Shown in pieces: positions 5,552 through 27,500 of a stretch of 32,000 nt of DNA. Origin of the DNA: Pyrobaculum aerophilum str. IM2 (lineage in GTDB: Archaea; Thermoproteota; Thermoprotei; Thermoproteales; Thermoproteaceae); contig NC_003364.1 of assembly GCF_000007225.1 (NCBI RefSeq), positions 1,890,001 through 1,922,000 on the forward strand, in the 5' to 3' direction. Within the stretch, counting starts at the first letter, position 1, and each line of letters begins with the position of its first letter. A program made the translations under genes and the position numbers. Below the pieces are notes generated by a model. That model saw nothing but the letters and a program-made list of their open reading frames with translations, was not told the DNA's origin and did no database searches.

Positions 5552-7057
5552 ATGCGAAAGTTAAAGACCACGGCTAGACTCGTAGCGTTTGCCGCGCTGT
5601 TTGTTGTGATGTTGTCCGCCCTCCTCTTCATGACCGCACACCAGCAACCTAAATTGAAAGAAGGAGAGGCGTCAGAGCCGCCTACAGTAGGAGGGATGGC
5701 GACTACAGCTGTGTCGAAGGAGGCGGCGCCCACACCGCCAGTTGCAGCGGAGGGCTCGACAGCTACTCCGTTAGCAGAGGCGCACGCGGGGGACGGTATG
5801 GCGTCAGCCCGGCGCGGCTCGTTGAGGGTGTACATAGAGGACGACCTCGGGCCTATAAACGGGTCAGTGTTTGTATTGCCGGCGGCTCCGCCTAATTATA
5901 CAATGCCCGCCGTAGTTAAGCCCGTGTCTGTGATCAAGGGCAGTGGGACTGCGCCGAAATACGCAGTAGAGGTCATAAGGAACTGGACTGCCCACAAAGC
6001 CCATAAAATCGGCGTGATGTTAATAGTCATCAACGGGACAGATGTGGCCATCACCACGGCGGCAATAGACCCAAGGGAAGTAGCCAGAGCACTGGAGTCT
6101 GGACAGGACTACGAAATAAAGGCGAAGGTAAGGGGCAAGGTGAAGAGGCAGAGCCAAGAGCGAGGCCAGTTAAGCTTCGCGGCATGCCCCGAAGCTGAGA
6201 TGGTTAAGGAGGATGAATTTGAAGGGGGCTGGATTATGACTCCGCTAATACGCGTCAAAAACAACGCAGATGTATACGGCACTTTCAGCATTAGCCTTGC
6301 TTCAGTGTATGAGAAGAGGTTCAGCTTTGGCTTTGCCATACAAGAAGATATAAAAGATTTGATAAATGTAAACTTTGGGATAGAAGCCTACGCCTATAGC
6401 TTAGGCGGACAATACGCCGGTTCAGACAGTTCCACAATACCTCCCAAAGGTGGCGTATGGGCCATTTCTATTTACACGTGGGGGAGATATGAGATTTATA
6501 GAATTGTGTACTACGCCAGTGATCCAAAAGGTTGCCTCATATTAGATGAGGACTGGCTCTACAGGGTGTACCCAAATAGCGTATTGACAGATGGTAACAC
6601 GATAGTCATGAGCGTCGCTGATGTTACTAATATGCCCGAGGCAGTGGTGCCGGGGACCGAGGCCATAGTATATGCGTACTACGGCGGCACAGGCTCATCG
6701 CCACCATACTATAAAATCGATACGATTAATCTAGCTGGCTGGTTCTACCAAGAGTGTCCGGGTTCTATCCCTGCGCCTGATGTGGGCGCTGGGATGGATT
6801 TAGGCAAGTTGATAAAGGACTACGCCTCAAAGGTGGGCAGGATTATTGCAGAGAGATTTACGAAAGTGTTGGAGATGGTGGGCACAGACGTTGCTTGGAC
6901 TGGCGGCACTAGTGTCTTTGTGGTACTAGGCAATGTGAGATTTGACGCACCGCGAGGTGCGCAGTTCTCCGTCTACTTCTACACTACGCAGACCAAGGTG
7001 GAGATACCGAGTTGCGGAAAGGTAGACCTGCCGTTTATATACGCCGAGTTTAGGTAA
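5552..7057 (+). CDS. hypothetical surface/secreted protein (501 aa) with an N-terminal anchor and a Pro/Thr/Ala-rich linker
   Basis: Signal-anchor LVAFAALFVVMLSALLFMTA, then linker EPPTVGGMATTAVSKEAAPTPPVAAEGSTATP, then a large beta-rich-looking domain. The promoter-like AAAGTTTTTAAAC lies about 20 nt upstream and a T7 run follows the stop. Confidence 0.75.
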   Translation: MRKLKTTARLVAFAALFVVMLSALLFMTAHQQPKLKEGEASEPPTVGGMATTAVSKEAAPTPPVAAEGSTATPLAEAHAGDGMASARRGSLRVYIEDDLGPINGSVFVLPAAPPNYTMPAVVKPVSVIKGSGTAPKYAVEVIRNWTAHKAHKIGVMLIVINGTDVAITTAAIDPREVARALESGQDYEIKAKVRGKVKRQSQERGQLSFAACPEAEMVKEDEFEGGWIMTPLIRVKNNADVYGTFSISLASVYEKRFSFGFAIQEDIKDLINVNFGIEAYAYSLGGQYAGSDSSTIPPKGGVWAISIYTWGRYEIYRIVYYASDPKGCLILDEDWLYRVYPNSVLTDGNTIVMSVADVTNMPEAVVPGTEAIVYAYYGGTGSSPPYYKIDTINLAGWFYQECPGSIPAPDVGAGMDLGKLIKDYASKVGRIIAERFTKVLEMVGTDVAWTGGTSVFVVLGNVRFDAPRGAQFSVYFYTTQTKVEIPSCGKVDLPFIYAEFR

Positions 7058-8721: not shown

Positions 8722-9654
8722 GTTTCAACTATCTTTATGATTGATTTCTGGTGTCGTTGAGTCCAGGTACTATTAGGCATTTCTTGCCCTGGCGCGTTTC
8801 AACTATCTTTTGATTTCTGGTTGATTTCTGGGCAAAAAGGAGTCATGCCCAAAAAGCCAAAAAACCCAATACTGTTTCAACTATCTTCTGATTTCTGGGA
8901 TGTTTACTTTCTGGTACAGAGCAAGGATGTCGAAGTATTAAGGATACGCATAGAGACAAAAGATGTGTTTCAACTATCTTTTGATTTCTGGATTATGAGG
9001 CCCTTAATTCTCGCCGGGCCTCCAAAGGCGGGGTTTCAACTATCTTTTGATTTCTGGACAGTGCTCTATATCGAGGGACGCGGTAAACTGAAGTTAAGTT
9101 TCAACTATCTTTTGATTTCTGGTACTCCTATTGAATTTCTGCCGAGCAGTTTTGCCTCTATGAGTTTCAACTATCTTTTGATTTCTGGATATTTATCTTG
9201 TTTGCGCTCGCATGAGTAGAGTGGAAACTGTTTCAACTATCTTTTGATTTCTGGTGGTGTAGATAACAGAGAATTATTAGATACGCTCTTTGTTGTTTCA
9301 ACTATCTTTTGATTTCTGGATATCAATGGCAGGAGGCCGAGCAACATGACTCCTATCGCCGTTTCAACTATCTTTTGATTTCTGGATCAGGCCCGACAGA
9401 CTCATAGTCGTAACGGACAAATACCTGTTTCAACTATCTTTTGATTTCTGGATAGTGGTGGAAAAGTGATTGTAGTCACTTGGGACGCAGAAGTGTTTCA
9501 ACTATCTTTTGATTTCTGGCTTATTCACTGATATCCGCTTAAGTTACCACGAGCCAGCGTTTCAACTATCTTTTGATTTCTGGCAAGCTGGCCGGCAGGC
9601 ACCCTGCGGCCTTGGATAGAATTATACAAGTTTCAACTATCTTTTGATTTCTGG
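8722..9654 (-). CRISPR. CRISPR array, 14 repeats of 25 nt. Plus-strand reading is GTTTCAACTATCTTTTGATTTCTGG; the transcribed sense is probably CCAGAAATCAAAAGATAGTTGAAAC.
   Basis: Repeats start at 8722 (degenerate, 5-nt insertion), 8796, 8874 (1 mismatch), 8967, 9033, 9098, 9164, 9230, 9295, 9361, 9427, 9495, 9559 and 9630. Spacers are mostly 39-46 nt and all differ. The minus-sense repeat ends in GTTGAAAC, resembling the ATTGAAAG-type 5'-handle of crenarchaeal crRNAs. The degenerate repeats are all at the 8722 end, which is therefore the trailer. Confidence 0.97.
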
Positions 9655-14040: not shown

Positions 14041-14116
14041 GCGGCGGTAGTCTAGCCTGGTTTAGGATGGCGGCCTGCCAAGCCGTTGATCCCGGGTTCA
14101 AATCCCGGCCGCCGCA
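14041..14116 (+). tRNA. tRNA-Gly (anticodon GCC), no intron, CCA encoded at 14117-14119
   Basis: Hand-folded cloverleaf. Acceptor stem GCGGCGG/CCGCCGC; D stem GTCT/GGAT; anticodon stem GCGGC/GCCGT with loop CTGCCAA; 5-nt variable loop; T arm CCGGG-TTCAAAT-CCCGG; discriminator A. TTTAAAAA lies about 40 nt upstream and a T5 run is at 14122-14126. Confidence 0.93.
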
Positions 14117-14251
14117 CCACGTTTTTCTCCCTCAAAAAACTAGCACTTGCGTTCGCGTCTCTTCACGGACGAAAACGCAACTCTTCCCCAGAATTTCAAA
14201 AACACTCTTTAGGCGGCGCTAAAGCTGAAATACTCGTATTGTCTTAGCGGC

Positions 14252-15253
14252 GTGGGAGTTGAGATCTGCCGCTCTCTCCTTGAGTGCTTGGGCGCGCTGG
14301 GGCGCTCGCAGAGGCTTTACGCGGCGGCTGGCCTTGTGGACGAGGAGGGCCTTGAGGCGGCGTCAAGGGCGGCGGGGGAGCTGAGGGTTTTAGTCGGCGA
14401 CTCGGGACCTGTGCCCAGACCTGTGTACGAGAGGTGGAGAGAGGTGGTGCGCGTCTACCCAAGCCTCCACGCTAAGTTCTACATCTTTGCAGAGGACGCA
14501 GGCCCCTCAGCCGCCTTAGTGGGAAGCGCCGACCTGACAGCCGGCGGGCTTAGGGGGAATTTAGAGGCGGTAGTCTTAATCAGGGGGGAGGCCGCCCGCC
14601 CCCTCGCTGACATGTTTAACAGGCTGTGGGCCAGGGCGCTCCCGCTGACCGAGGACTACGTGGCCGACTGGGAGGGCCCGGAGGAGGCGCTCCGGAAGCC
14701 TTGGGGGGAGGCCGTTAAGCGAGCCAACGAGAGGCTGGCAGAGATCCTCGGCGTGAGCGCGCACTGCCTCTCCCGGCACGACCCGCTGAACTGCGCCAGG
14801 CTGGTTGCCAGGGCTGTCCGCTCCCGGTTTGAGGGTTGCGGGGATCTGCCTGAGAACTGCGCCGCGAGGGCGACCGGCGTTAGCGCCAAGGCCCTCCTCT
14901 CTGCGCCGCCCTCAGCGGTGCTGGCGGGGCACTACGTCTGCTGGGCCAGGGCGCTGGCCGCCAGGTTACTAGAGGGCAAAGTAGGGCGCTTGGACAGCGG
15001 AATGGAGGCGTACGAGGCCGCTGTGCAGGCTGGTGCCGAGAGTTGCTGGGGAGAGGCAAAGAGGGCGGCGGAGGAGGAGCTGGAGAGGCTGGAAGACAGC
15101 AACTACAGAGACAACTACGTGAGGTGGCCAATACCCTACAGGCTTCTCTTCCTAGCGATGACTCTGCCTGCTACGGGTTGCCGCATATTGGGCAGAGAAG
15201 TGAGGACAAAGAAGAGGGGTGTAGCCAGAGTGGAAAGGGAGCTCTACTGCTGA
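14252..15253 (+). CDS. PLD-superfamily (single HKD motif) nuclease-like protein with an Ala/Arg-rich C-terminal extension
   Basis: HKD-type motif LHAKFYIFAEDAGPSAALVGSADLTAGGLRGNLE (14468-14566), i.e. HxK...GSxD/N-LT...N-E as in PLDc_2/Nuc-like nucleases. The gene is very GC-rich and has a GTG start. Its 3' end overlaps the convergent 670-aa gene by 10 nt. Confidence 0.7.
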   Translation: MGVEICRSLLECLGALGRSQRLYAAAGLVDEEGLEAASRAAGELRVLVGDSGPVPRPVYERWREVVRVYPSLHAKFYIFAEDAGPSAALVGSADLTAGGLRGNLEAVVLIRGEAARPLADMFNRLWARALPLTEDYVADWEGPEEALRKPWGEAVKRANERLAEILGVSAHCLSRHDPLNCARLVARAVRSRFEGCGDLPENCAARATGVSAKALLSAPPSAVLAGHYVCWARALAARLLEGKVGRLDSGMEAYEAAVQAGAESCWGEAKRAAEEELERLEDSNYRDNYVRWPIPYRLLFLAMTLPATGCRILGREVRTKKRGVARVERELYC

Positions 15254-17256
15254 GGCGCTTGAGGACACAGCATTCTTAAAAACATAATAGCCATTCTCTT
15301 GGACACTTTCATCTCTTCGTGAAGCGGCGGATAAACGCAGAGATTTCTCTGCATTAATACACGCCGCTGACACCCATCACTACAGCTGGGAATGTGGCGA
15401 GGCCACACGTACTGCAGAATTTTGCTACTGCTCTGTCCTGCACTCGCGCCAATGCCTCTAATTATGTCGCGTAACATAAACCTGAATATATCCCTCGGCG
15501 GAGTTACTTCCTGCGGTCTGCGTTTGAGTTCTTGGTCCAGGCTTGAGGCGAGCTGGTCTTGCGCGGCTATAACGCGGTACATCCTCTCTACGCGCCTACT
15601 CTCCTCCTCCCACGCGCGCTTGCATGCGTCCCTGGGCGAGCCGCAACCGCCGATGTCCTGCAGTAGTTTGCCCAGCACACTTGACAGATCCTGACAGTTC
15701 ATCATACTAGTCCCTTTTAAGTCGTATACTGTGATCTCTACTTCAGCCACACTGTTTAAACTGGTATTGACCTCTATATTAAACAATCCGTCTATGTTGA
15801 GGGGCTCGTAGCTCTCCCACCCGAACATGGCGCAGTTAAGCATAGGTAGCTTGCGCGGATTCAGCTTCACAGCGATCCTTTCGCTGAACTCATCCCGGCC
15901 GAGACCTGCTGACTTGCCTAGCAAGTGCGCAACGCCGTGTGAGCCGAGAAGAATTGCAGAGAAGGCGAGCGTGTCATAAAGGGTCAGCGCGGCGAAGAGC
16001 TCTTTGCTTCGCGATTCTATTAATCTGCACTCAAGTCTGCCCGTATACTGAAATCGCGTCATTAAACAGCTTCTAAAGTCGTTCGGCGTCTGCGAGTTCT
16101 CTATACAGTCTGTAAAATAATCTATCCACCGCTGGCGCTCCTGGCTTATACTAAGATCTCTGCACTTATATTTTACTACCGCATTTTGCCACCTCTTTAA
16201 CAGACTTCTGAGCCCTCCAGAGCCGCTGTAATTAGCACCACTTCCGTATATCTCGCTGTATATGCCTAAAATTCTGCTGATAATGGGGGTTGTGATTACA
16301 ATTTCTCTTCCAAATATAGATGCGCTGATTTCCCTCTCGGTTACCCAGCGTCCGCAACCAAAGGCCCTAAAAACACTTCCAGCAACGACGTTTTGCAACA
16401 GCAACTTCACGGCAACTTTCTTATCGCTGTCTAGCAGTACGCTCCGTACATTACTGTATAGGAGGTCGTCAGAGATGTTCAGCTTGATTCTATAATACTT
16501 TGCGCTTGGGTGCAGTGTTCTGGGACTTGAGCTACCGACAATGTCGTAATGCACTACCACCGGCAGATAAGCGGCTCTATCTTTTGTCCTCAGCGAAATA
16601 AGCGATCCCATATAGATAGCCTCAACAACGGCTTCTCCTAACTCCAGCGTGCCGCCCAAACACTGAGAACGGCTGAAGGAAGAAACCTCGTCAACAAAGG
16701 CTTTGCCAAACACATTCAGCTTCTCAACTGCATCAACCGTCGCCGTAAAGCTCCAAGATGCGTGTCTTCCCGATATGGTTAGCTGAAATCTTTCACTCCT
16801 ACCTTTTGCAAGCGGAATGTTTCTTGTTATTGCAACAATCCACGGTTCTCCCCGCCTTCCAAAATTCTTAACTACGGCGTATGTCTGACTCTCTGACTGT
16901 CTCTCGCTACAAGAGGTTAAGAACAGCACGGCGTAACTGAGCCACCCAGCTTCGCCGTTGCGGTATACATAATATCCGCATATGTCGAAATTACGGCGCC
17001 CTGTACTGCTTCTGCAAAGCCCGCACAGCCTGTCTGCAAGATAGTCAATATCAAAAGACACGGTATATGTAAACTCGGCAACAGGAGACTGATCAACTGC
17101 AACAGCTGATCCTCCTTGTTGCGCGGGTGTTAATTCTCTTATTTCCGCTTGTCTTAAGACTGTTAGGATGAGTACGTTTACGTTGTCTTGTCTGGTGATG
17201 CTTCCGCCGACAAGGTAGAACCTGTTGCCCCCGTAAGCCGGCAAGTATATTTTCAT
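15244..17256 (-). CDS. 670-aa Cys-rich protein, partner of the nuclease-helicase. The C-terminal half resembles DUF1998 (MrfA/DrmB-type Zn-binding domain).
   Basis: Its ATG overlaps the stop of the upstream 1287-aa gene (ATGA, 17253-17256). These elements occur in the order I recall for DUF1998: SHGVAHLLGKSAGLGRDEF, then ITVYDLKG, then GGCGSPRDAC, then CSDGCQRRVLMQRNLC...LHEEMKVSKRMAIMFL. This has not been verified by an HMM. Confidence 0.8.
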   Translation of the reverse strand: MKIYLPAYGGNRFYLVGGSITRQDNVNVLILTVLRQAEIRELTPAQQGGSAVAVDQSPVAEFTYTVSFDIDYLADRLCGLCRSSTGRRNFDICGYYVYRNGEAGWLSYAVLFLTSCSERQSESQTYAVVKNFGRRGEPWIVAITRNIPLAKGRSERFQLTISGRHASWSFTATVDAVEKLNVFGKAFVDEVSSFSRSQCLGGTLELGEAVVEAIYMGSLISLRTKDRAAYLPVVVHYDIVGSSSPRTLHPSAKYYRIKLNISDDLLYSNVRSVLLDSDKKVAVKLLLQNVVAGSVFRAFGCGRWVTEREISASIFGREIVITTPIISRILGIYSEIYGSGANYSGSGGLRSLLKRWQNAVVKYKCRDLSISQERQRWIDYFTDCIENSQTPNDFRSCLMTRFQYTGRLECRLIESRSKELFAALTLYDTLAFSAILLGSHGVAHLLGKSAGLGRDEFSERIAVKLNPRKLPMLNCAMFGWESYEPLNIDGLFNIEVNTSLNSVAEVEITVYDLKGTSMMNCQDLSSVLGKLLQDIGGCGSPRDACKRAWEEESRRVERMYRVIAAQDQLASSLDQELKRRPQEVTPPRDIFRFMLRDIIRGIGASAGQSSSKILQYVWPRHIPSCSDGCQRRVLMQRNLCVYPPLHEEMKVSKRMAIMFLRMLCPQAPQQ

Positions 17257-20200
17257 AGTGTCTCGTATCTGTCTGTCTTCAGGGGAGCTGATTTCAGATA
17301 CGCCTCTCTAAGCTCTCTGCTCCGCCTCCTAATACCTCCGCTTTCTACTGTGTAGTGAGCCAGCGAGTATTCAATTATGCGCGGATCCGGCATTGGCGGC
17401 ACAAACGTCAGCTGAAGCAGTATCTCCCTTGTCCTCCATCCGCTGTAGCTTGGTGCCCTAGGAAAGTACTGCAGTATCAACTCTCTAGCAACGTGTAAAG
17501 CGTCTCTCACATAATCGCGCACAATATTGTAAATTCTTATATCATTGTTAATAAAACATTTTGAAAGATCAGGTAAAGAATCAAGTTGTGACAAAACATT
17601 GCCTAACGTAAAGTAAAGCTCCCAAGAATACTTTAGCGGATCTGTTGCATATATGTTTATTATTTTTGATAAATTTTCATATAAACTACACGTATTATTA
17701 ATATTTTGTAAAACATTTCTAATATTATCAATGTATTGATTTATTTGATTAACAATATCTCTCAAGAGCCGGTGAGCTACTTGCTGCATTGAGCCTCCGA
17801 GCGCTTGAAGTGCGCTACACATTGTTTGAAGTCTCGAAGATATAACATGATACAGCTGATTCGCTTGGTTAGCATCTGAAACTAGAAATTGGAGAGAGCT
17901 CTCTACTACTTTCTCCACCTTGTTTATTACATTGCTGTTTCTAAACCACCCTAATGCTCTGATTGTCGTGTAGGCTATGAGTTGCTCAATGCTTATAATT
18001 CTGCTTTCGTCTCGCGGAAGCACAGGCGTTCGCTTAAAGGCGAAGAGTCTGGCTACGGCGTAGTCCTCGTCAATAAGCGCCACATCCTCCCCAGTATGCT
18101 TAGCAAACAAGATGCCAAGCGCGGTATAGAGAACGGATTTGTCCCTACCCCCGCGGCCAAACCTCTGTATAACGTTTTCTGCAAGCTTGGGAAGACCCAG
18201 CTGGCCCACTGCTCCAACGCCGGTAAGATTAACGCCGAGCTCCAGTGTCGATGTTGAAAGAACTACAGACCATGCACCAGGTCGCTCCAGCTTTTCCTCT
18301 ATACTATACCTTACGTTATCGGACAGATCTGCATGGTGTATCAGCAATGTGTGCCTGTTCTGTATATTTCTGCCGTTATTCCTGATATCACTTATGATAT
18401 CTATAGTAGCATCAATTGCCATATTGTAGCACTGCGGCCCCCTTGCTACCGAACTATCTGAATTATAGGCTCTTTTTGCAGAGCCATATGCGTTATTCAG
18501 CTCTGCCAGCGATGTGCAGAACAGCGTAAGGTGGCTGAAGTCTTCCAGCTCAGCCAGGCTACCAGAGTTGAGGATATTTCTGACTAGATTCAAACCATAT
18601 GATGCTATATTTCCGTTGATCAGATTCATTACAAACGGTTTGGTAACGGTCTTGTCAGATGGAGATCCCTCTTTAAGCACCAGCCTGTCCCTTACATATG
18701 CTTCAACTTCGCTTAGACTCTCTTTGCTGTCAAAAAATATTACGGACGAGAAGTTTCTCAGCACTTCTGCCGAGAGCTTGCGCCTGGCACTTGACGCTAT
18801 CATTAAAGACACCACAGCCTCTTGGACTGTGCCGCTGGGCGACTCCGCGGGATTTGTAAAGACCACCATTGGTGCGGTCAGCTTTGCAACTGTTACAGTA
18901 CTGCCACTCCCTTGGATGCTGCCCAGCATGCTATAGTAGTCTATTGGTTCGACAGCATATTCTTGCACCAGCCTTTCGCCGAGTAGCGCATTAGCGAGAC
19001 TTTCTGAAAACTCCCTTACCATTCTCGGATCGGGCGGCTCCGTTCTCTCAACTGCACCTACAGAGCGGAAGGTAATAGGCGCGCCGCTTGCGTCGCTGGC
19101 TATTCTGTCAGCAAAGGGCAGACCTGAGCTTGTAACTGTCGCGCTTGATAATATTATTGCAGGATACTTTTTCACGTCTCCAAGCAGATAAAGGCGGTGG
19201 AGGAGCGCCGTGAAGAAGTCTAGGTGCTTGGGCTCCAGCATTGTGTGTACTTCATCGATTACTAGCAGTGCAAGACTGTTGGCTAGCTTCTTTGCGCTAT
19301 CAGCGCTCCTCATGAGCATCGAAGACAGCTTATATGGATTGGTAACTATTATTGAAGAACTCAGCGCGTCGTCGTCCTCGCAATCTGTGAACCAGCTTAC
19401 TTGACTGGCCGCTTGATTTGTCCTGCATATATACTGCCCGCCTTGATACTCTAAGCTACCTCTTCCTCCATCGCACCTAAGGGCGCGCACGCCTCCTTGG
19501 GGTCGCCTGCCGCATCTTTTGCTGTCGCCATCTAAGACGGCGAGGCTTATATTCGCACCATGTCTATTAAGACCTTCTACTATGTAGTAAATCTGCTGAA
19601 CTTGTTGCAACGCCAGCTTTTTGCTTGGATACATTATCACAGCTTTGAAACCGTGTAGCGCAACAGCAATTGCAACGATTAAGAACACGAGAGTTTTTCC
19701 AGTGCCTGGAGGCGCCGTCAGAATAATGAGCGGGGAGCGCCCCGATTTTTCAAGCCATGCGGTAATGTTTTCTGCAATCTTTCTTATCGCCTCGTTCTGA
19801 AAGCCGCTTATATTAGTAATCGGCTGTCCTTTTTCATCAAATAGATTACTTACTAATTTATTAATCCAGTTCTCGTTCCATAAATTTCTTGAAAAATAAT
19901 TACTAATTTGATCTACTTTTATGTCTCTGCTACCTATATGATCAATTATAATTGGCAGGTAGTAGGCCTCAAAAGTTCTTCTATTGCCTGGTAGTGCGGA
20001 TATATTACGGATGAGTCTTGCAACTTCTCCGTGGAAAGTTCTGTAGCACCTCTCCGGTCCATTCAGCAACTTCCGCACATCTATCCTAACACCGCGCCTT
20101 CTCAGAGAGTTCAGCAGAGATACATACTCTAACATTATCAGGTAATCATTCCTTGTTACTTGAAATGCCACTACGTAACGTCCGCTGGAATCTATCTGAA

Positions 20201-21116
20201 TTTTCTGAAGGGGGATTCTATATTGATAACAGCTCTTTTCAATGAGCAATTTCTGCGCTTTGAGGTACTCTGCGATCTGCGACGCATTTTGAGAATTAAT
20301 CACATAATGAATGTGTTCCTCTGTAAGTGGCAAATTGTCTCTATGAAGCGTAGTTTGTGAAAGCGCGATGTAAAGAGGTCCGCATTTGACGCACCTAGTG
20401 CCGTGACGCGCGAGACACCACTCAGTTTTAAACAGCTCTTGATATGCAACTTCAGCGCTGGCGGCTCTGACCTGAGCAGTGCCTTGTGCGATATAGCTAC
20501 GCATTTTCTCACGTATTGGACAGTCTGTGTTCCTACATCTGGCGCACTCAGGGCCTGGCTTATACGCCAGCTCTGCCGACGTAGTTGTAGATGCGCCTTC
20601 TTTACGCGCTGTCTCAACATCAATGAATATAAAAAACGGCGTATTTTCTAAGCCCTCCACCGGTATTCCTCTATATACCAGTACGGGAATTACTTCAGGC
20701 GAGCTGAACCTTCTTCTTATCTCCTCTCCATACAGAACAGCTTGCTCGAAATCGGCGATGTAGGATCTTGTAAATCCCCTTTGACAGTACGATTCTTCAT
20801 TTATCTCCGCGAAAGGGTAGCTTTTAATCTCAAGCACGTATATTTTATCAATGCACCTAAGAACAGCGTCAGCAACTCCTCTCTTCACCAATGGGTTTTC
20901 CTCTATGCATTCGCTACCGATTATATCCCTAAATATCCTAACAACACGCGCTACTAGTTCGTCGTGTTCTCTCGACTTAGCCTCAAGCACTTTCTTAGCA
21001 TCCTCAGTAATATCCTCCTTAAAGTGATAACAGTGCAGAAGGCTTCTAATTCTTCTTGCTTCCTCTCTAGCGGCCATCATGACGCACACTAAAATCCAGA
21101 GCTGTTGAACACGCAC
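17253..21116 (-). CDS. 1287-aa fusion protein: N-terminal Cas4/RecB-like PD-(D/E)xK nuclease with Fe-S cysteines, an SF2 DEVH-box helicase, and a long helical C-terminal region
   Basis: Nuclease motifs: C70...D82/D90...VLEIKS (E96-x-K98, nt 20823-20831)...QAVLY (QxxxY)...CARCRNTDC (nt 20520-20546). Helicase motifs: I APPGTGKT (19692-19715), II DEVH (19245-19256), III SAT, then HHADL, V STSTLELGVNL, VI QRFGRGGR (18144-18167). The start is GTG 21116 or ATGATG at 21080. Confidence 0.9.
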   Translation of the reverse strand: MRVQQLWILVCVMMAAREEARRIRSLLHCYHFKEDITEDAKKVLEAKSREHDELVARVVRIFRDIIGSECIEENPLVKRGVADAVLRCIDKIYVLEIKSYPFAEINEESYCQRGFTRSYIADFEQAVLYGEEIRRRFSSPEVIPVLVYRGIPVEGLENTPFFIFIDVETARKEGASTTTSAELAYKPGPECARCRNTDCPIREKMRSYIAQGTAQVRAASAEVAYQELFKTEWCLARHGTRCVKCGPLYIALSQTTLHRDNLPLTEEHIHYVINSQNASQIAEYLKAQKLLIEKSCYQYRIPLQKIQIDSSGRYVVAFQVTRNDYLIMLEYVSLLNSLRRRGVRIDVRKLLNGPERCYRTFHGEVARLIRNISALPGNRRTFEAYYLPIIIDHIGSRDIKVDQISNYFSRNLWNENWINKLVSNLFDEKGQPITNISGFQNEAIRKIAENITAWLEKSGRSPLIILTAPPGTGKTLVFLIVAIAVALHGFKAVIMYPSKKLALQQVQQIYYIVEGLNRHGANISLAVLDGDSKRCGRRPQGGVRALRCDGGRGSLEYQGGQYICRTNQAASQVSWFTDCEDDDALSSSIIVTNPYKLSSMLMRSADSAKKLANSLALLVIDEVHTMLEPKHLDFFTALLHRLYLLGDVKKYPAIILSSATVTSSGLPFADRIASDASGAPITFRSVGAVERTEPPDPRMVREFSESLANALLGERLVQEYAVEPIDYYSMLGSIQGSGSTVTVAKLTAPMVVFTNPAESPSGTVQEAVVSLMIASSARRKLSAEVLRNFSSVIFFDSKESLSEVEAYVRDRLVLKEGSPSDKTVTKPFVMNLINGNIASYGLNLVRNILNSGSLAELEDFSHLTLFCTSLAELNNAYGSAKRAYNSDSSVARGPQCYNMAIDATIDIISDIRNNGRNIQNRHTLLIHHADLSDNVRYSIEEKLERPGAWSVVLSTSTLELGVNLTGVGAVGQLGLPKLAENVIQRFGRGGRDKSVLYTALGILFAKHTGEDVALIDEDYAVARLFAFKRTPVLPRDESRIISIEQLIAYTTIRALGWFRNSNVINKVEKVVESSLQFLVSDANQANQLYHVISSRLQTMCSALQALGGSMQQVAHRLLRDIVNQINQYIDNIRNVLQNINNTCSLYENLSKIINIYATDPLKYSWELYFTLGNVLSQLDSLPDLSKCFINNDIRIYNIVRDYVRDALHVARELILQYFPRAPSYSGWRTREILLQLTFVPPMPDPRIIEYSLAHYTVESGGIRRRSRELREAYLKSAPLKTDRYETL

Positions 21117-21259
21117 TCAATGTTGCCGTGCTACATAGAGCCAAGTAATCAAGTGGCACATCTCTAGCGGCAAAGTTATATATTAAGTTTTTCTGCATAA
21201 ATTACAGCGTTAGATCTAGCCTCTTCTGCCTAAAAATATCTTGCAGTGAGCGCAGACGT

Positions 21260-21952
21260 TCAGACGCGCTCTCGCTTCTGATAGAATACGCACACATTAT
21301 TGGCCAGAGGGCACAGACTGCACTTAGGCGATTTGGCAGTACACACCTTTCTCGCAAAATCTAGCACTCCAAAGTTAAACTCTTTGGCCAGCTCTGGATC
21401 TCGGGGAACGAGAGATCTCGCAAAATTCCAAAGCTCCCTGTCGGTATGAGGCCTCCTCTTTTTAGATTTGATGCCAAACACTCTTTCAATAACCCTTATC
21501 ATATTTCTGTCGAGAAGCGGTTCCGGCTTCCCACACGCCGTAAGGAGGACTTCGGATGCGGCATAGTCGCCCACGCCCGGCAGTGACTTCAAAGCGTCTC
21601 TGTCGCAAGGAATCTGTCCATTAAATCTCCTGACCAGCTCCTCCGAAAGCTTCTTGAGGAGCGTTGCGCGGACGTGCTCCATCCCCAGAGGCTGTATAAT
21701 TGCTTTAATCTCCTCAACACTGGCGTCTGCAAGGCGAGCCGGCGATGGGTACCGTCTCAAAAATTCCCTATATATATCGACAACTTGCTTTACCGTAGTC
21801 TTCCTCAGAAGCAGGGCCGCGACGAGCACAGCCCACGGGTCGCCGGCTTTCCGCCACGGCAGGTCTTTCTCGCCGAATTCTCTATACCACTTAATGATGG
21901 CATCACGGAATTTAGTATAATCTACACCACGTGGTATAAGATCTGAACACAC
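21260..21952 (-). CDS. mig: HhH-GPD/[4Fe-4S] DNA glycosylase of the EndoIII/MutY superfamily, Mig-like (T/G and U/G mismatch glycosylase type)
   Basis: Motifs: LPWRKAGDPWAVLVAALLLRKTT; HhH LPGVGDYAASEVLL, with Tyr where EndoIII has its catalytic Lys, as in Mig; catalytic-Asp segment LLDRNMIRVIERV; Fe-S loop CTAKSPKCSLCPLANNVC. It is adjacent to a C5-MTase, as for Mig.MthI. Confidence 0.85.
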   Translation of the reverse strand: MCSDLIPRGVDYTKFRDAIIKWYREFGEKDLPWRKAGDPWAVLVAALLLRKTTVKQVVDIYREFLRRYPSPARLADASVEEIKAIIQPLGMEHVRATLLKKLSEELVRRFNGQIPCDRDALKSLPGVGDYAASEVLLTACGKPEPLLDRNMIRVIERVFGIKSKKRRPHTDRELWNFARSLVPRDPELAKEFNFGVLDFARKVCTAKSPKCSLCPLANNVCVFYQKRERV

Positions 21953-21992
21953 CGGCTTGATTCTCAGAGCATAGTATATAAAAATGTAACAT

Positions 21993-23024
21993 ATGGCCTC
22001 GTTATATATGGCCGTTAGTGTTTCAACATGCGAGCCCTATGTTTCTAGAGCGGTTAAGCAGGACTCCACTCTTGCGATATACGCCGAATACGTCAGCGAT
22101 CTCTGTGAAGGCGCTGTAAGGAGCGGAGACGTAGAACGCTTCTCAAAGCTAGACGAGTGGCTTGAGTGGCTTAAATGGAGCTCCGTCGTTTTGAACCATC
22201 ACGATTACTTAGAGGTAGCAGTGCGTACACTGAGGCTTGCACCATATCTGAGACCCACAGACTATGGAACAGCTAGACAGCGAGATCTGGGTCAGCTGTG
22301 GACCGATGCTATAAGGGGACATTTGGGCGAGATAGCCTTTGCAAAATGGATTAGCGAGAAATTTGGTATAGCCATAGAAACGGGACTCAGCGAGCTTGGT
22401 CCGCTTGAGGAATTTCTACCATCTGATGTAATAAAGGTAAACAACAGGCCTCCACAGCTTAAGGTCAGTATTAAAACTACAAAATTAAGGGGAGTGTGGC
22501 TTGATATTCCGTATAAGCAGATAGATCACAGTGACATTTTTATACTAGTGAGAGTCGGCGTAGCTAGGGAGCATTTCATAGCTTTTCTGAAGGCTATCAG
22601 TGTTATTAGAGACAAAATTCTAGCAACAGCACTGCAACAAGGTATCATAAGTGAAAAAGAGAGCGAGGAAATCTGGAATTTGCTACCCGACTTTAAGCCG
22701 ATACCTGCGTATATTGTAGGTTATTTTGACAAAAGATTGTATATAGATTATATTCAGAGCGAAGACGTTATTGAAGTTGATGGAATCATTGGAACAAGAA
22801 ATATAACAGTTAGAAAGTACTTAGGTTACTGGCATCCCGAAGACAACAGAGTGAAAGAATCGGTTCTCGCAAGGCTGGAACAAAAGTACGGCACAAAGAT
22901 TTCTGGTTACAAAATTCGGTTTGAAGGAATTGGAGATTTTTCAAAAACAAAGCACTTCGTAGTTAGCTCTGGATTTCTAAAACGCACAGAAAGGGATTGG
23001 AGAGAGCTATTAGCTCAGCTGTAG
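21993..23024 (+). CDS. candidate type II restriction endonuclease (PD-(D/E)xK-like); otherwise hypothetical
   Basis: The putative catalytic pattern is GE113IAF ... PSD145VIKV ... KVS159-I-K161 (nt 22329-22475). The gene converges on and overlaps the C5-MTase gene by 10 nt, a typical R-M arrangement. The start could be ATG 22008. Confidence 0.5.
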   Translation: MASLYMAVSVSTCEPYVSRAVKQDSTLAIYAEYVSDLCEGAVRSGDVERFSKLDEWLEWLKWSSVVLNHHDYLEVAVRTLRLAPYLRPTDYGTARQRDLGQLWTDAIRGHLGEIAFAKWISEKFGIAIETGLSELGPLEEFLPSDVIKVNNRPPQLKVSIKTTKLRGVWLDIPYKQIDHSDIFILVRVGVAREHFIAFLKAISVIRDKILATALQQGIISEKESEEIWNLLPDFKPIPAYIVGYFDKRLYIDYIQSEDVIEVDGIIGTRNITVRKYLGYWHPEDNRVKESVLARLEQKYGTKISGYKIRFEGIGDFSKTKHFVVSSGFLKRTERDWRELLAQL

Positions 23025-24406
23025 AAATCTGCTAAAATTCTGGCCAGCGTCTCCGCTATCTTCATAGCCGCCAGCGGCGGCACAGCCTCTCCAATTTGCG
23101 CCCTTATCTGCGTCTTTGAACCGTAAAAGAGGAAGAGATCGGGAAACGTCTGGAGCCTAGCCCTCTCCCTCAATGTCAGAGTCGCCCTGTCTCTGTCGTA
23201 ATGATAGCCGTGAGTTCCGCCGCCGCCGTATGCCACTACAGTATAGGCAGGTATCAGCGGATGCAACCTCCTGTAGATTAGGCTGATGCCTCTCCCCTTT
23301 ACTTCCCACTTTGTCCCTTTGACAAACTCGTGGTTTTCGCCGGGCGGGATCCGCTTCATCCGCTCTACTACCTCTGTACTGTCGTCGGGGGGGTCGGTCG
23401 TGCCGTCGGGAAGTTTTAGGAGGCTGACAGGCGTGTTGTAGTATCCGAGAAGCTTCAGCACCACCTCGTGTTCTCTAAATGCGGCGTCTAGCTCCTCACT
23501 GTCAGTCCTCTGCACTCCATTCAGCCTTAAATAGTCTTGGACTGCGTCAAAAGTCAGATCGTCCCACACTTTCTGCTTCCACATGAGAGCGGTTTCTGTG
23601 CCCACTTCTTCCCACACTCCGCGCCACTTCTCCATAATTTCTCTATACTCTTCCTGCAACTCATCAAGCCTCCTGCCTTCAAAGACTTCCAGCGGCGTGA
23701 GGGGAAATTTTGCAAAAACAGTCTTACGCAGAGCGCGGTCAATTACAGCCCTGGCATGCCAGATCTGCTCCGCAGAGCGGATTAAATCTCGCCTTATGCC
23801 GATTATTATCAGCCTCTCCCTCTTCTGGGGAACGCCTGCGGCCGCAAAATCGACTATATCACTAAATACTATCTCATAACCTTTAACGCCAGCACCTATT
23901 TTCTCTTGCGTCATGATCTCCTTTACCTCTTCCCATCTGGTATTCAGCCTGGCGAAATCTTCGATAATGGTCTTGTACGCAAGGCCCCCGTTCGCGCTCG
24001 TCAAGCCTGGGACGTTTTCAAAGACAAAAGCTTTGGGCTGAAGTACTGCGAGCGCTCTGATGAAGTGGGCATACAGCCTCCCCCTCTTTATCGTTATGCC
24101 GACACGGGCGGGCCCCCTTACAATTGAAAAGTCTTGACACGGCGGGCCGCCGACAACTACGTCAGCCTCTCCAGCTAGCGGCGAAAACAGTACTTTCTCT
24201 ACGTCGCAGGACAGCACAACATTCGGCTCGGCCTCAGTTAAGCCGCCGCACTTCAGCAACTTCATCTCGAAGTTCTTGGCATATGTTGTGGTAGCGTACA
24301 GATTTACGTCATTTGCAAATATTATTTGGTACATTCCGCTCATCTTAAAGCCTAAGTCAAGACCTCCGGCGCCCGAAAAGAGCGAAACGACTCTGAAGGG
24401 TTTCAT
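23015..24406 (-). CDS. DNA (cytosine-5)-methyltransferase
   Basis: Motifs: I LFSGAGGLDLGF; IV GGPPCQDFS; VI FVFENVPGL; VIII QKRERLIIIG; a long variable (TRD) region; IX/X TLRERARLQTFPDLF...GEAVPPLAA. Confidence 0.95.
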   Translation of the reverse strand: MKPFRVVSLFSGAGGLDLGFKMSGMYQIIFANDVNLYATTTYAKNFEMKLLKCGGLTEAEPNVVLSCDVEKVLFSPLAGEADVVVGGPPCQDFSIVRGPARVGITIKRGRLYAHFIRALAVLQPKAFVFENVPGLTSANGGLAYKTIIEDFARLNTRWEEVKEIMTQEKIGAGVKGYEIVFSDIVDFAAAGVPQKRERLIIIGIRRDLIRSAEQIWHARAVIDRALRKTVFAKFPLTPLEVFEGRRLDELQEEYREIMEKWRGVWEEVGTETALMWKQKVWDDLTFDAVQDYLRLNGVQRTDSEELDAAFREHEVVLKLLGYYNTPVSLLKLPDGTTDPPDDSTEVVERMKRIPPGENHEFVKGTKWEVKGRGISLIYRRLHPLIPAYTVVAYGGGGTHGYHYDRDRATLTLRERARLQTFPDLFLFYGSKTQIRAQIGEAVPPLAAMKIAETLARILADFYS

Positions 24407-25177: not shown

Positions 25178-26245
25178 TTGAAACTTTTACCTATCCCCCT
25201 TTTACTTTTATTTACTACTACCTTTATATTTGTATTTTTTCTCGGGGCTATGGGTTGGTTTGTTGCGCTTGGCGTTGACGTAAATAGAGACTACTTGGCG
25301 TTCGGCTGGCTGACTAACGACGCCGACTACGTGGCCTCTGTGCTGGGCGGCTGGGGGATGCACCCGCTTACTAGCTGGCTGTTTGAAGAGCACGTGGAGT
25401 TCGAGGGGCCGCTGGCGTTGGACCACAGCGTCACTGTGCCGGCGGTTAAATACGTGGGGGTTTTAATGTGGCTCCCTGGGCGTAAGAACAGGAGGCAGAA
25501 GCGGTGGCGGAGGCTGGCGTTGGGTAAGCTCTTCGCCCAGCTTACGCCGTGGCTGAGGTTTTTGGCTGACGCGGGGACTCCGGCAGTTGTGGGACTGGAG
25601 GACCTCAGGGGCATGGCGGAGAAGAGGGGCATCCACGAGATTGAATACGCCAAGATCTGGAAAAAGGCCATGGGCTCCTTCGGCGCTTTGCTCAAAGAGG
25701 GAGACGGCTACCGAGCTTACGTGGGCAGGGGGAGGTCTGTGGTCATCGCGCTCGACCCGAGGGGCACTTCGTCCATATGCGCTATATGCGCCGCCGAGGG
25801 GAAGACGACGCCTGTTAAGGAGAGGCCCGACAGAACCGTCTACTGTCCAATACACGGCGCCATGAACCGCGACATTAACGCGGCCTTTAACATTGCCATT
25901 AGGGCCGTGAGGATCTACGCGGGGGATCCGCCGGGGGGCGCCCGCGGGGGACTAGAAAATCCCCAGCCGCGGGTGCTCCCCACGGGTCTCCCGCGTGATG
26001 ACAGAGGAGTACAAGATGCGCACGGAGATGAGACCGTAGAAATCAGGCAGGCGCCGAGGCTAGACTACCGCCGCAACCCACACCTGAGAGCGCCCCCCGG
26101 CGCCCTATACGCGTATTTGGAGGAGGTATTTAAATGTTTCGGCTGTGCTGAGGGATTTGGCGTTGCGCCGTCGTTAATCGCGGCCTTCTCGAGCCCGTCT
26201 GGAACCGCACACACGCCTGTTTTTTCGCCCCATGTGGGCGCATAA
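25178..26245 (+). mobile_element. tnpB: IS200/IS605-family TnpB (OrfB) remnant: RuvC-like core retained, N-terminal about 150 aa missing, aberrant C-terminal read-through
   Basis: RuvC-I ALGVDVNRDYLAF; RuvC-II VVGLEDLRGM; zinc finger CAICAAEG...CPIHG; RuvC-III NRDINAAFNIAIRA. The first roughly 30 codons are low-complexity (LLLLFTTTFIFVFF). About 110 codons follow the normal C-terminus. No TnpA and no obvious IS ends were seen. Confidence 0.8.
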
Positions 26246-27500
26246 AGTCGCGGCTAATTCTAGGGAGGAGTTTGTAAGCGTTTTGCTGTCGCGTAAGTTT
26301 TTCGGCCTGGATTTGTCAAGGGGGGTTGTCCTCCTGGAGCGCAGGGCTGACCACCCCTTTGTCCCCCTGGGGAAAGAGAGGCGGCTTAGGGTGTGTAGGG
26401 GCTCTCCGCCCCTCCCGGCGGCGGCGTGGCGGGTTAACGGGGAGAGGCCTCTGACTTTTAAGTCAGGCCTGGGGGTGGGGATCTACTGGTTTGAGCAACT
26501 CGGCCTCTTCAAGAGGGGGAGGGAGTGGGCGGTGGCATCTAGCTGTAAGAACAGGCCTCCTTTCTTCGGCTGGGAGAGAGTGGCCGGGTGGGCGGTGGCC
26601 GAGCTCTTGAGGGAGGCGCCCTATTGGCGCTTCTGGCCTCCCCTCAAGGGCCCCGTGGAGGGGCACCTCCTTATTGCCGGCAGTAGCGGGTCGGGGAAGA
26701 CCACGTTTTTAAAGCGCTATCTATCGTGGGTTGGGAAGTGGTACGTGGTGGACCTCACAGAGGAGGGGGAGTACGTGGGGCTTGCGGCAACTGTGGAGGG
26801 CTCTGTGGACTTGGCCTCTCTCAACGCCGAGGAGCAGGCGCTTCTCTACAGCCTAGGCGTGGCGGCCACTGTGGGGGCGAGGGAGGCCGCGGTCTCCGCC
26901 GTCCAGCTGGGCGCCTTGAAGCTCTTGGCCCGCAGGGGGCTGGGCCTCGACGGCCTTTTAGAGGAGCTGCGCACGGCGGGGGACATCCCGCAACTGACTA
27001 GAGAGGTTTTGTTCACAAAACTGTCGGCCGCTTGCGAGGGGTTTGAGAACGGCAGGTGCAGGCCGCACCCGGCGTTGACGAAAGACGTCGACTTGCCGCC
27101 TCCGCCTGCTGTTATTAGAGTGAGCCCCTCCAACCTGCTCGTGGCGGCTATAGTCGCCCACGGGGTTTTGGCCAAGTTGCTCAAGAGAGGCGGCGTTTTC
27201 GTGGCCGTGGACGAGTACCACAAAATTGCCCCGAGGCTCCCGGTGGAGGACCCTGTGGAGAGGGCGTTGAGAGAGGGCAGGCACCGGGGGGTGGCCTTGG
27301 CCGTGGCCACTCAGAACCCCCTGGACGTCAAGGAGTCTTTGGCGTCTGTGGTGGGGAACTACGTGTTTTTCAACTTGGCGGGACCCGCGGCCCGCTTCGC
27401 CGCCGAGGTTTTAAACGTGCCCCAGTGGGCCGTGGAGTCGTTAAAGCCCGGCGAATACCTGGCCAAGTTGCGCCATGGCCCAGCGGCGGGGGCTGTTTAG
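26232..27500 (+). CDS. HerA/FtsK-like P-loop ATPase (DUF87-like)
   Basis: Walker A HLLIAGSSGSGKTTFL, Walker B VFVAVDEYHKIAP, sensor-like AVATQNPLDV. The gene is very GC-rich. Confidence 0.75.
   Translation: MWAHKVAANSREEFVSVLLSRKFFGLDLSRGVVLLERRADHPFVPLGKERRLRVCRGSPPLPAAAWRVNGERPLTFKSGLGVGIYWFEQLGLFKRGREWAVASSCKNRPPFFGWERVAGWAVAELLREAPYWRFWPPLKGPVEGHLLIAGSSGSGKTTFLKRYLSWVGKWYVVDLTEEGEYVGLAATVEGSVDLASLNAEEQALLYSLGVAATVGAREAAVSAVQLGALKLLARRGLGLDGLLEELRTAGDIPQLTREVLFTKLSAACEGFENGRCRPHPALTKDVDLPPPPAVIRVSPSNLLVAAIVAHGVLAKLLKRGGVFVAVDEYHKIAPRLPVEDPVERALREGRHRGVALAVATQNPLDVKESLASVVGNYVFFNLAGPAARFAAEVLNVPQWAVESLKPGEYLAKLRHGPAAGAV

Follow-up and report, generated by a model that had tools for sequence, protein, structure and literature searches.

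The stretch of DNA analysed here (32,000 nucleotides (nt), referred to as the window) comes from Pyrobaculum aerophilum str. IM2 (contig NC_003364.1, positions 1,890,001 to 1,922,000 of the forward strand). Near its centre lie two long overlapping minus-strand genes, of which the first encodes a large superfamily 2 (SF2) helicase with a predicted N-terminal nuclease domain and the second a partner protein of 670 amino acids (aa). The gene pair is real, uncharacterised, and fits an established theme: it most likely represents a rare archaeal system, so far undescribed, that is related to the anti-virus system DISARM of bacteria, with a defence function that is inferred from its context. The pair is arranged as follows, with positions counted from the first letter of the window:

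17253..21080, minus strand: nuclease-helicase gene (AAL64745.1, presumably PAE3198; 1275 aa from ATG 21080)
15244..17256, minus strand: partner gene PAE3197 (AAL64744.1; open reading frame (ORF) of 670 aa)
17253..17256, minus strand: ATGA overlap, in which TGA ends the helicase and ATG opens the partner, as read in the sequence

A first-pass annotation, made from the sequence alone, had reported the two long minus-strand ORFs and their ATGA overlap, and both are borne out by the sequence, which reads CTATGAAAATA around the junction (also GAG ACA CTA TGA AAA ATA). The same annotation gave the helicase a length of 1287 aa, which is obtained when the ORF at 17253-21116 (minus strand) is read from GTG 21116. 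The database protein AAL64745.1, an exact match labelled 'ATP-dependant helicase, probable', has 1275 aa, and both it and the closest helicase homologues, including one with 79% identity, begin at M13/M14 (a Met-Met located 12 codons past the GTG). The start is therefore probably ATG 21080 and the protein shorter than first proposed; the residue numbers used below follow the 1287-aa frame. An A/T-rich TTAATATATAAC element, found about 95 nt upstream of ATG 21080 in the intergenic region (21117-21259) that separates the helicase from the glycosylase gene Pa-MIG, could be an archaeal TATA box for the gene pair. PAE3197 carries the database label 'hypothetical protein'. Since both proteins have homologues in the databases (14 clusters for the helicase, 24 representatives for the partner) that keep the pairing, the two genes are real and not chance ORFs.

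The family is small. The 14 helicase clusters, formed at 90% identity, were found among 5.8 billion proteins, and the 24 partner proteins were retrieved from 1.84 billion representatives by an exhaustive HMMER search with a two-sequence profile; a word-indexed homologue search with the partner alignment returned only two already known proteins. Loci could be recovered for most of the 14 helicase clusters, and four more came from metagenomes. In every recovered helicase locus a partner homologue follows directly, at a distance of -4 to +3 nt, and the pair is present in all of the distinct related loci with context (about a dozen, mostly from Thermoproteales), with identities of 33-79% for the helicase and 24-75% for the partner. 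The most distant partner homologues, whose conservation is confined to the C-terminal 240 residues, are likewise preceded by a helicase fragment. These observations support the view that helicase and partner form a conserved, translationally coupled unit. The first-pass annotation had allowed for a pair absent outside this genome, which the co-occurrence in about a dozen loci shows not to be the case.

The operon occurs in two forms. The two-gene form, as in P. aerophilum and P. ferrireducens, spans helicase identities of 50-100% and has neither room nor a gene for further operon members upstream; the same is seen at a distance (33% identity) in locus L013, where the pair is co-oriented with a Mig gene and only 191 nt lie upstream of the helicase. 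The four-gene form is commoner (loci L001-L007 and L017-L020, helicase identity 39-41%) and consists, in translationally coupled order, of an orphan protein of about 420 aa (g420), a 540-aa nSTAND NTPase, the helicase, and the partner. The NTPase matches nSTAND_NTPase5/nSTAND3 and weakly mad8, g420 has no Pfam or PADLOC match, and both genes (at 7117-10004 in L001, for example) are absent from the window. Scans of GTDB representatives with peptide and degenerate DNA patterns gave nothing; they missed the known carriers P. aerophilum and P. ferrireducens and are hence uninformative on rarity. Relatives were not found on 2.9 million viral contigs, and 72,556 plasmids yielded only generic RecA2-motif matches besides one Halobaculum locus described below; neither result supports or refutes a role in defence.

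The helicase can be divided into four regions:

20502..21044, minus strand: predicted PD-(D/E)xK nuclease domain, about residues 25-205 (invariant columns, Pfam, Foldseek)
19827..20444, minus strand: linker, about residues 225-430 (13-homologue alignment, AF2 model; no family match)
18027..19811, minus strand: SF2 helicase core, about residues 436-1030 (Pfam DEAD, ResIII, Helicase_C)
17256..18026, minus strand: helical, coiled-coil-like C-terminal region, poorly conserved, with a strongly conserved tail

In the alignment of 13 homologues, the N-terminal region contains the invariant residues D83, E96-x-K98, and Q125-x3-Y129 as well as the cysteines C191-x2-C194-x4-C199 (invariant) and C29 (near-invariant). 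The pattern recalls RecB, Cas4, AddB, and Dna2, in which an Fe-S cluster is held at the PD-(D/E)xK core like a staple, by one cysteine on the N-terminal and three on the C-terminal side. When seven members were scanned individually against Pfam, NERD was matched in six (best E 4e-4) and PDDEXK_1 in one (E 0.013), and Cas_Cas4 (PF01930) in none of the seven. An AF2 model of residues 13-452 (pLDDT 73.7) was compared by Foldseek, and nearly all matches were PD-(D/E)xK nucleases, albeit at weak E-values, including the Cas4-family ACE1, MGME1, NucS, Hjc, cap-snatching endonucleases, and phage RecB-family exonucleases. The data support a predicted PD-(D/E)xK nuclease domain that is NERD/RecB-like and has a Cas4-style cysteine pattern. 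The first-pass annotation had called the N-terminus Cas4-like. By these comparisons, that term appears correct for the architecture (the PD-(D/E)xK fold, the RecB-type motifs D...ExK and QxxxY, and the one plus three cysteines around the nuclease core are shared with the Cas4/RecB/NERD group) but not for the family, which in Pfam is NERD. The Pyrobaculum domain further differs from Cas4 in being fused to a helicase and not linked to cas1/cas2, and in its C-terminal cysteine spacing, which is CX2CX4C, whereas Cas4 usually has CX2CX5C.

The linker between nuclease and motor contains an invariant Zn-knuckle-like motif, EWC234-LARH238-GTRC242-VKC245-GP (EWCLARHGTRCVKCGP), which is followed in the AF2 model by helical and small beta domains. 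The motor itself carries the motifs FQ, APPGTGKT, YPSKKLA, TNPYKLSS, DEVH, SSAT, STSTLELGVNL, and QRFGRGGR. Five of these (APPGTGKT, DEVH, SAT, STSTLELGVNL, and QRFGRGGR) had been listed by the first-pass annotation; all are present in the translation and invariant across the 13 homologues. RecA1 has an insertion with the cysteines C548 and C564, and a large insertion separates motifs III and V. The C-terminal region ends in the tail PPMPDPR ... RPLKxDRY, strongly conserved among the 13 homologues and also recognisable in the distant loci L013, L014, and L016. The alignments thus place the conserved ends of the pair at the extreme C-terminus of the helicase and the extreme N-terminus of the partner.

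When the full-length helicase was compared with Pfam, only the SF2 core was found. Against PDB sequences, the 13-member profile matched Lhr best (8e-14), followed by a 2108-aa DEAD/DEAH helicase (9tu7, 4e-9) and MrfA/YprA (6znp, 1.5e-8), with eIF4A, RecQ, and Hel308 weaker than both Lhr and MrfA/YprA. By these matches the core groups loosely with Lhr/YprA. In NCBIfam the best score was 55.6 bits against a cut-off of 850, TIGR03817 was matched with 42 bits against a cut-off of 874, and the equivalogs of Lhr-type helicases, RecQ, RecG, DinG, and reverse gyrase remained far below their cut-offs. An orthologue of a core repair helicase (Lhr, Hel308, RecQ, or XPB/XPD) is ruled out by these scores; the first-pass annotation had named such an orthologue as one outcome that would overturn its proposal, and with at most 56 bits against cut-offs of about 850 it was not found. 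The PADLOC models SngC (best, 1e-22, 78 bits), BrxHI, DpdJ, DrmA, Cas3, HamB, and DruE matched parts of the helicase core.

The partner PAE3197 is built of an N-terminal half rich in beta structure, a middle part of helices, and a Zn-cluster domain at the C-terminus, and its AF2 model is confident (pLDDT 83.9, pTM 0.87). The last of these parts is the following:

15262..15969, minus strand: candidate diverged MZB/DUF1998-like domain of the partner, about residues 430-665 (16-member alignment, Foldseek, Pfam, hhalign)

MZB is the MrfA Zn-binding domain, formerly DUF1998. The domain of the partner contains H440-G-x2-H444-x3-K448, the strand VEITVYDL, a helical insert with C545, and the cysteine cluster C625-x3-C629-x2-C632 (R in IM2)-x7-C640, followed by SK. 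In the 16-member alignment H440, G441, H444, K448, E459, C545, E552, R588, R592, P619, C625, D627, G628, C629, V633, C640, and S652 are invariant, and C632 is conserved in 15 of the 16. The order of these motifs (H-x3-H, a beta strand ending in YD, C-x3-C-x2-C-x7-10-C) is what we take to be the order in DUF1998. Foldseek with the PAE3197 model returned the DUF1998 helicase MrfA (6znp_A) as the best PDB match (E 0.02, probability 0.57), and Pfam MZB was matched in two of the 16 members (E 0.08) with no other family matched in more than one. A fourth signal comes from a 696-aa protein of Halobaculum, which scores 22.2 bits on MZB (cut-off 24.2) and was aligned with the partner profile by hhalign from the H..H motif to the cysteine cluster (E 0.004-0.009, low probability). 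Four weak, independent signals, none significant alone, thus agree, and we regard it as reasonably likely that the partner ends in a diverged MZB (DUF1998) domain. The DUF1998-like character claimed by the first-pass annotation therefore holds as a set of convergent hints and lacks a significant match in Pfam, PADLOC, NCBIfam, or PDB.

The IM2 copy itself deviates at one of the putative Zn ligands. Codon 632 (15361-15363, minus strand) reads CGT, which gives Arg in the local sequence CSDGCQRRV, whereas two near-identical sequences of the same 90% cluster (one annotated as P. aerophilum, the other from ENA) read CSDGCQRCV and every other member has Cys632. On this comparison, C632R is a strain-specific change by which the IM2 copy lost the third cysteine of C-x3-C-x2-C.

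The genes surrounding the pair in the window recur next to its relatives. They are the following:

14252..15253, plus strand: PLD-like protein, 333 aa (Pfam PLDc_2, RE_NgoFVII E 2e-7)
21260..21952, minus strand: Pa-MIG (PAE3199), HhH-GPD glycosylase (Pfam HhH-GPD, HHH, EndIII_4Fe-2S)
21993..23024, plus strand: Type II restriction endonuclease (REase), 343 aa (PADLOC REase_II PDLC03411, 5e-116, full length)
23015..24406, minus strand: C5 cytosine DNA methyltransferase (MTase), 463 aa, AAL64748.1 (Pfam DNA_methylase 4e-51)

Pa-MIG, the immediate upstream neighbour of the helicase and encoded on its strand, matches the PADLOC model 'Type II nicking endonuclease' with 9e-39 and is a characterised T/G and U/G mismatch glycosylase (PMC5069365). 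Each locus with context has a Mig homologue next to the helicase operon, although its placement varies: in the window and L011 it lies upstream in the same orientation, in the four-gene loci it is divergent, in L008 it lies downstream, and in L013 it is co-oriented and overlaps the partner gene. C5 MTase homologues are found in all Thermoproteales-type loci whose contig reaches the position (L001, L003, L005/L006, L007, L018, and L020), but a Type II REase stands beside the MTase only in the window, L005/L006, and L020. In the window the MTase is convergent with the REase and matches PADLOC MTase_II and, more weakly, DrmMII.

PLD-like homologues occur in L001, L003, L007 (as fragments), L009 (convergent as in the window), L018, and L020. 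In the window, the gene converges on the partner gene, with an overlap of 10 nt between their ends, and its product matches the PADLOC models ZacB (2e-8) and DrmC (best 8e-6, weak and in the motif region only). The motif HxK...GSxD is kept in the window but reads GHVGNLYI...GGAP in L001 (3892-4872) and L003 (3914-4897), and these copies look inactive from their sequences. A Cys/Trp-rich C-terminal domain is conserved throughout the family, and in the copies measured (the window, L001, and L003) the gene is far more GC-rich than the helicase operon. A role of the PLD-like protein as an NgoFVII-type REase of the MTase, suggested by its location at the REase position in L001 and L003, is unlikely as its HxK motif is degenerate there and L020 has both a PLD-like gene and an REase.

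The more distant loci widen this picture. In L016 (3912-7647) a distant partner homologue is followed by an SF1 helicase (AAA_11/AAA_12) and an Eco57I-type N6 MTase, and in L014 (2315-2605) by a fragment of a D12-type MTase; the linkage to MTases thus spans MTase classes. The order of the R-M-V block and its orientation relative to the operon vary between loci, and the flanking genes differ. The constant theme is helicase, partner, and DNA MTase, with Mig wherever the MTase is of the C5 type. Because L001, L003, and L007 have the MTase without a Type II REase and their PLD-like genes are degenerate or fragmented, the helicase operon is the only candidate restriction arm in these three loci.

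The setting of the block was characterised by two further features of the window and by its base composition:

14041..14119, plus strand: tRNA-Gly(GCC), at the island edge (ARAGORN, Rfam)
8796-9654, plus strand: CRISPR array, separated from the pair by about 5.6 kb (Rfam CRISPR-DR26; 14 repeats with a period of about 65 nt)

The 5' end of the tRNA-Gly recurs 12 kb away at 26057-26074 as a perfect inverted copy of 18 nt, inside the ORF of a TnpB remnant, and together tRNA and copy bracket the whole block of low GC content at third codon positions (GC3). Tentatively, they may be an att-like site or a pseudo-tRNA remnant left by integration and subsequent inversion, with the copy being short and inverted. 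The genes of the block (15244-24406) have a GC3 of 0.41-0.60, compared with 0.58-0.80 for the other genes of the window and 0.69-0.79 for the immediate flanks, which agrees with the AT-richer block noticed in the first-pass annotation. Its proposed defence-island context is also recovered, as Mig, the Type II REase, the C5 MTase, the PLD-like gene, and the TnpB remnant are all present and the CRISPR array can be added; the array explains a low-GC, ORF-poor stretch at 9-10 kb. Judged by gene content and composition, the setting is that of a horizontally acquired defence island.

Two groups of described systems bear on the interpretation. According to Bell et al. 2025 (PMC12458937), the YprA family consists of an SF2 core and an OB-CON-DUF1998 'canopy', the canopy is consistently a gene of its own only in DISARM (DrmA/DrmB, with the PLD gene DrmC next), and the defensive branches are accompanied by PD-(D/E)xK (including NERD), Vsr, or PLD nucleases. 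In the DISARM structure, the C-terminal arm of DrmA wraps the N-terminus of DrmB, the DUF1998 domain holds a four-Cys zinc site, and 5-methylcytosine (5mC) on single-stranded DNA (ssDNA) damps the ATPase (PMC9142583). The Pyrobaculum pair appears to share with the YprA family (MrfA/YprA, DruE, DpdJ, ARMADA, BRIGADE, and TALON) the Lhr/YprA-type core, a putative Zn module with H..H and a cysteine cluster, and the association with nucleases (PD-(D/E)xK, NERD in TALON, Vsr, or PLD) and MTases. In these families, the DUF1998 module is normally fused and the nuclease C-terminal or separate, whereas Pyrobaculum has the nuclease at the N-terminus and the putative module in a gene of its own. Sequence comparison revealed no BrxA-like or MarR-like inserts in the Pyrobaculum helicase. 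The available text of Bell et al. describes no clade with a split module and N-terminal nuclease or from Thermoproteales, and neither the accessions of the pair nor the name 'Pyrobaculum' was found in the portion of its supplementary tables that could be searched.

The likeness to DISARM extends to the whole block. In both, a large SF2 helicase is followed by a separate protein of about 650-700 aa, which in Pyrobaculum ends in a putative Cys4-type Zn module, a PLD-family gene (PLD-like in Pyrobaculum) comes after the partner, and a DNA MTase (C5, as in class 2) lies in the conserved block. The candidate parts (helicase, split-off Zn-module protein, PLD-like gene, and C5 MTase) correspond to the parts list of DISARM. 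Moreover, the conserved helicase tail and partner N-terminus recall the pivot arm of DrmA and the N-terminus of DrmB. Because the PLD-like gene, the MTase, and Mig are conserved companions in other genomes, it is the block and not only the pair that looks DISARM-like. Differences are equally clear: the Pyrobaculum helicase has an N-terminal nuclease of the PD-(D/E)xK/Fe-S type that DrmA lacks, Mig accompanies the pair throughout, an nSTAND NTPase and the 420-aa orphan are additions in most relatives, and the host is a hyperthermophilic crenarchaeon. DrmD (an SNF2 helicase) and DrmE were not found in the window or the related loci, and the nSTAND NTPase and g420 match neither of them.

An unfused analogue of the pair lies on the Halobaculum marinum plasmid NZ_CP119991.1 (L010, 155000-164173), where a DEAD/DEAH helicase of 913 aa is followed by the 696-aa borderline-MZB protein and a PDDEXK_1/Dna2-like nuclease. 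Its sequences are only marginally similar to those of the Pyrobaculum pair, its nuclease (1091 aa) is encoded by a gene of its own, and the locus is itself undescribed. The same operon also encodes a 358-aa protein and a very large ATP-binding protein.

The first-pass annotation had known of no described system of this kind. In line with this, PADLOC 2.0 contains models for neither the partner nor g420, no such system appears among the PADLOC models, and the literature searched mentions neither PAE3197 nor PAE3198 nor a Thermoproteales YprA/DISARM-like clade. The pair is, on the other hand, a variant of the split YprA/DISARM theme, so its novelty stays below that of a system with no known logic.

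Taking together the observed domain content, gene coupling, co-occurrence, rarity, and foreign composition, we lean, by a modest degree, towards the reading that the pair represents two halves of a split YprA/Lhr-type helicase machine, DISARM-like, methylation-linked, and with a fused nuclease. The block is then DISARM-like in logic and probably a very divergent split YprA-type system. It is not called a member of DISARM because no sequence-level comparison clearly supports membership and because it adds the N-terminal nuclease, Mig, and elsewhere the nSTAND NTPase and g420.

Several results weigh against this reading. The best PADLOC DrmA match (E 1.3e-9) aligns query residues 928-1002 with positions 808-883 of a 1095-position profile, that is about 75 residues of the RecA2 region, and PADLOC DrmB does not match PAE3197. 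Structures of DrmA or DrmB were not among the listed profile-PDB or fold matches. PAE3197 gave no match in Pfam, PADLOC, NCBIfam, or PDB sequences even at E 1-10, its 16-member profile found nothing relevant in PDB sequences, and the Foldseek E-values of its model are 0.02 or worse with low TM-scores. Generic Type II models (1e-204) match the MTase of the window far more strongly than DrmMII does (2e-39). As this MTase also comes with an REase of its own, the R-M-V module could be a self-sufficient neighbour. The PLD-like gene, which in DISARM follows the partner, is convergent in Pyrobaculum, often degenerate, and not co-operonic. Finally, the IM2 partner may be impaired, as the cysteine lost through C632R is an otherwise invariant putative Zn ligand.

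If the split-machine reading holds, the system might operate as follows. PAE3198 would provide the RecA1/RecA2 motor and an Fe-S-type PD-(D/E)xK nuclease, and PAE3197 a separate 'canopy' subunit ending in a diverged DUF1998 domain. The two proteins would be synthesised in a coupled 1:1 ratio and assemble into a heterodimer, in which the helicase, by analogy with the pivot arm of DrmA, probably uses its conserved C-terminal tail to hold the N-terminus of the partner, which is conserved as well. We infer that the complex would load on invading DNA that is single-stranded or bears an overhang and translocate at the expense of ATP, and that the fused N-terminal nuclease would cut the DNA, a role which in DISARM falls to the separate PLD protein. 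The neighbouring DNA MTase would mark self DNA and make the defence methylation-dependent, and Mig would repair the T/G mismatches arising from deamination of 5mC at about 100 C. In most relatives, the upstream nSTAND NTPase and the 420-aa protein would probably act as sensor or regulator.

The same parts could be arranged into an immune system in its own right, that is a distinct, hyperthermophile-adapted, methylation-coupled one that is not an offshoot of DISARM. Here the nuclease-helicase and the Zn-cluster partner would be the effector, the MTase would set the self-mark, the nSTAND NTPase and 420-aa protein would, in the four-gene form, sense infection, and Mig would be integral, whether by shielding the methylated genome of the host from 5mC deamination or by making use of invader bases that are deaminated or unmodified. 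We consider this doubtful. Rather unlikely, too, is an autonomous defence helicase-nuclease with a logic like that of Hachiman, Nhi, or Shango, with which the R-M-V block, the PLD-like gene, and CRISPR merely co-travel and for which the partner would be a lineage-specific regulatory or DNA-binding subunit and not a DUF1998 protein. It would account for SngC being the best PADLOC match (with HamB matched weakly), for the partner having no significant family match, for the full-length Type II REase that the MTase of the window has to itself, and for the differences between loci in how the R-M-V genes are ordered and oriented with respect to the operon. However, the SngC match is partial, the HamB models match over about 45 residues only (E 3e-6), and the window has no equivalents of SngA (TerB) or the SngB ATPase and no HamA-like (DUF1837) gene. 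Furthermore, an MTase and/or Mig stays linked to the pair even where partner identity falls to 24% and where the class of MTase changes, three loci (L001, L003, and L007) have the MTase without an REase, and several weak signals agree on MZB.

The remaining explanations place the pair outside host immunity. As a repair module of the MrfA/MrfB or Lhr type working with Mig, the glycosylase would remove T or U opposite G and the nuclease-helicase excise the strand, on a mobile island that also carries the C5 MTase from which the deamination problem arises. Mig lies beside the operon in every locus with context (in L013 its gene even overlaps that of the partner), the core of the helicase comes closest to Lhr and MrfA, and the YprA/MrfA family has a large repair branch (PMC12458937, PMC7797055). 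Still, an extremely sparse and patchy distribution and a foreign composition are unlike a core repair function, the nSTAND NTPase in the operon of most relatives is a hallmark of conflict systems, distant members travel with N6 MTases and an SF1 helicase where deamination of 5mC is no issue, and the neighbours include a CRISPR array, an REase, and a TnpB remnant; we regard this explanation as improbable. Very unlikely is that the pair serves the replication or maintenance of an integrated mobile element, as a Dna2- or Cas4-like nuclease-helicase working for the element and not for the host. The island does abut a tRNA-Gly with its inverted fragment 12 kb away, and it shows low GC3, a TnpB remnant, and flanking genes that differ between loci, but neither it nor the related loci contain an integrase, replication initiator, capsid, or conjugation gene, the viral contigs and plasmids searched yielded no relative, and the constant companions are restriction-modification (R-M) components.

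Archaeal immunity beyond CRISPR and classical R-M is little characterised, and Thermoproteales have been almost untouched by tests. With this pair, the YprA/DISARM theme would reach into the hyperthermophilic crenarchaea, and it would do so in a new layout, with the nuclease at the N-terminus of the motor, a DUF1998-type module beyond profile detection, a glycosylase as obligatory neighbour, and an optional nSTAND NTPase. It would also offer a small and concrete case of a methylation-linked helicase system at about 100 C, where deamination of 5mC is costly. The orphan partner family, with its 24 representatives among 1.84 billion proteins, is flagged for structural study.

Two further observations concern other parts of the window. 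At 25178-27500, the TnpB remnant (with a Cas12f1-like TNB domain) is followed by an overlapping gene for a 422-aa P-loop protein with weak FtsK/AAA_22 matches; both ORFs are GC-rich, unlike the island. At 5552-7057 (plus strand), near the CRISPR array, a 501-aa protein is encoded whose sole match is a weak one to EACC1 (Effector Associated Constant Component 1, E 0.005), and which may, on that match, be a further conflict-system gene.

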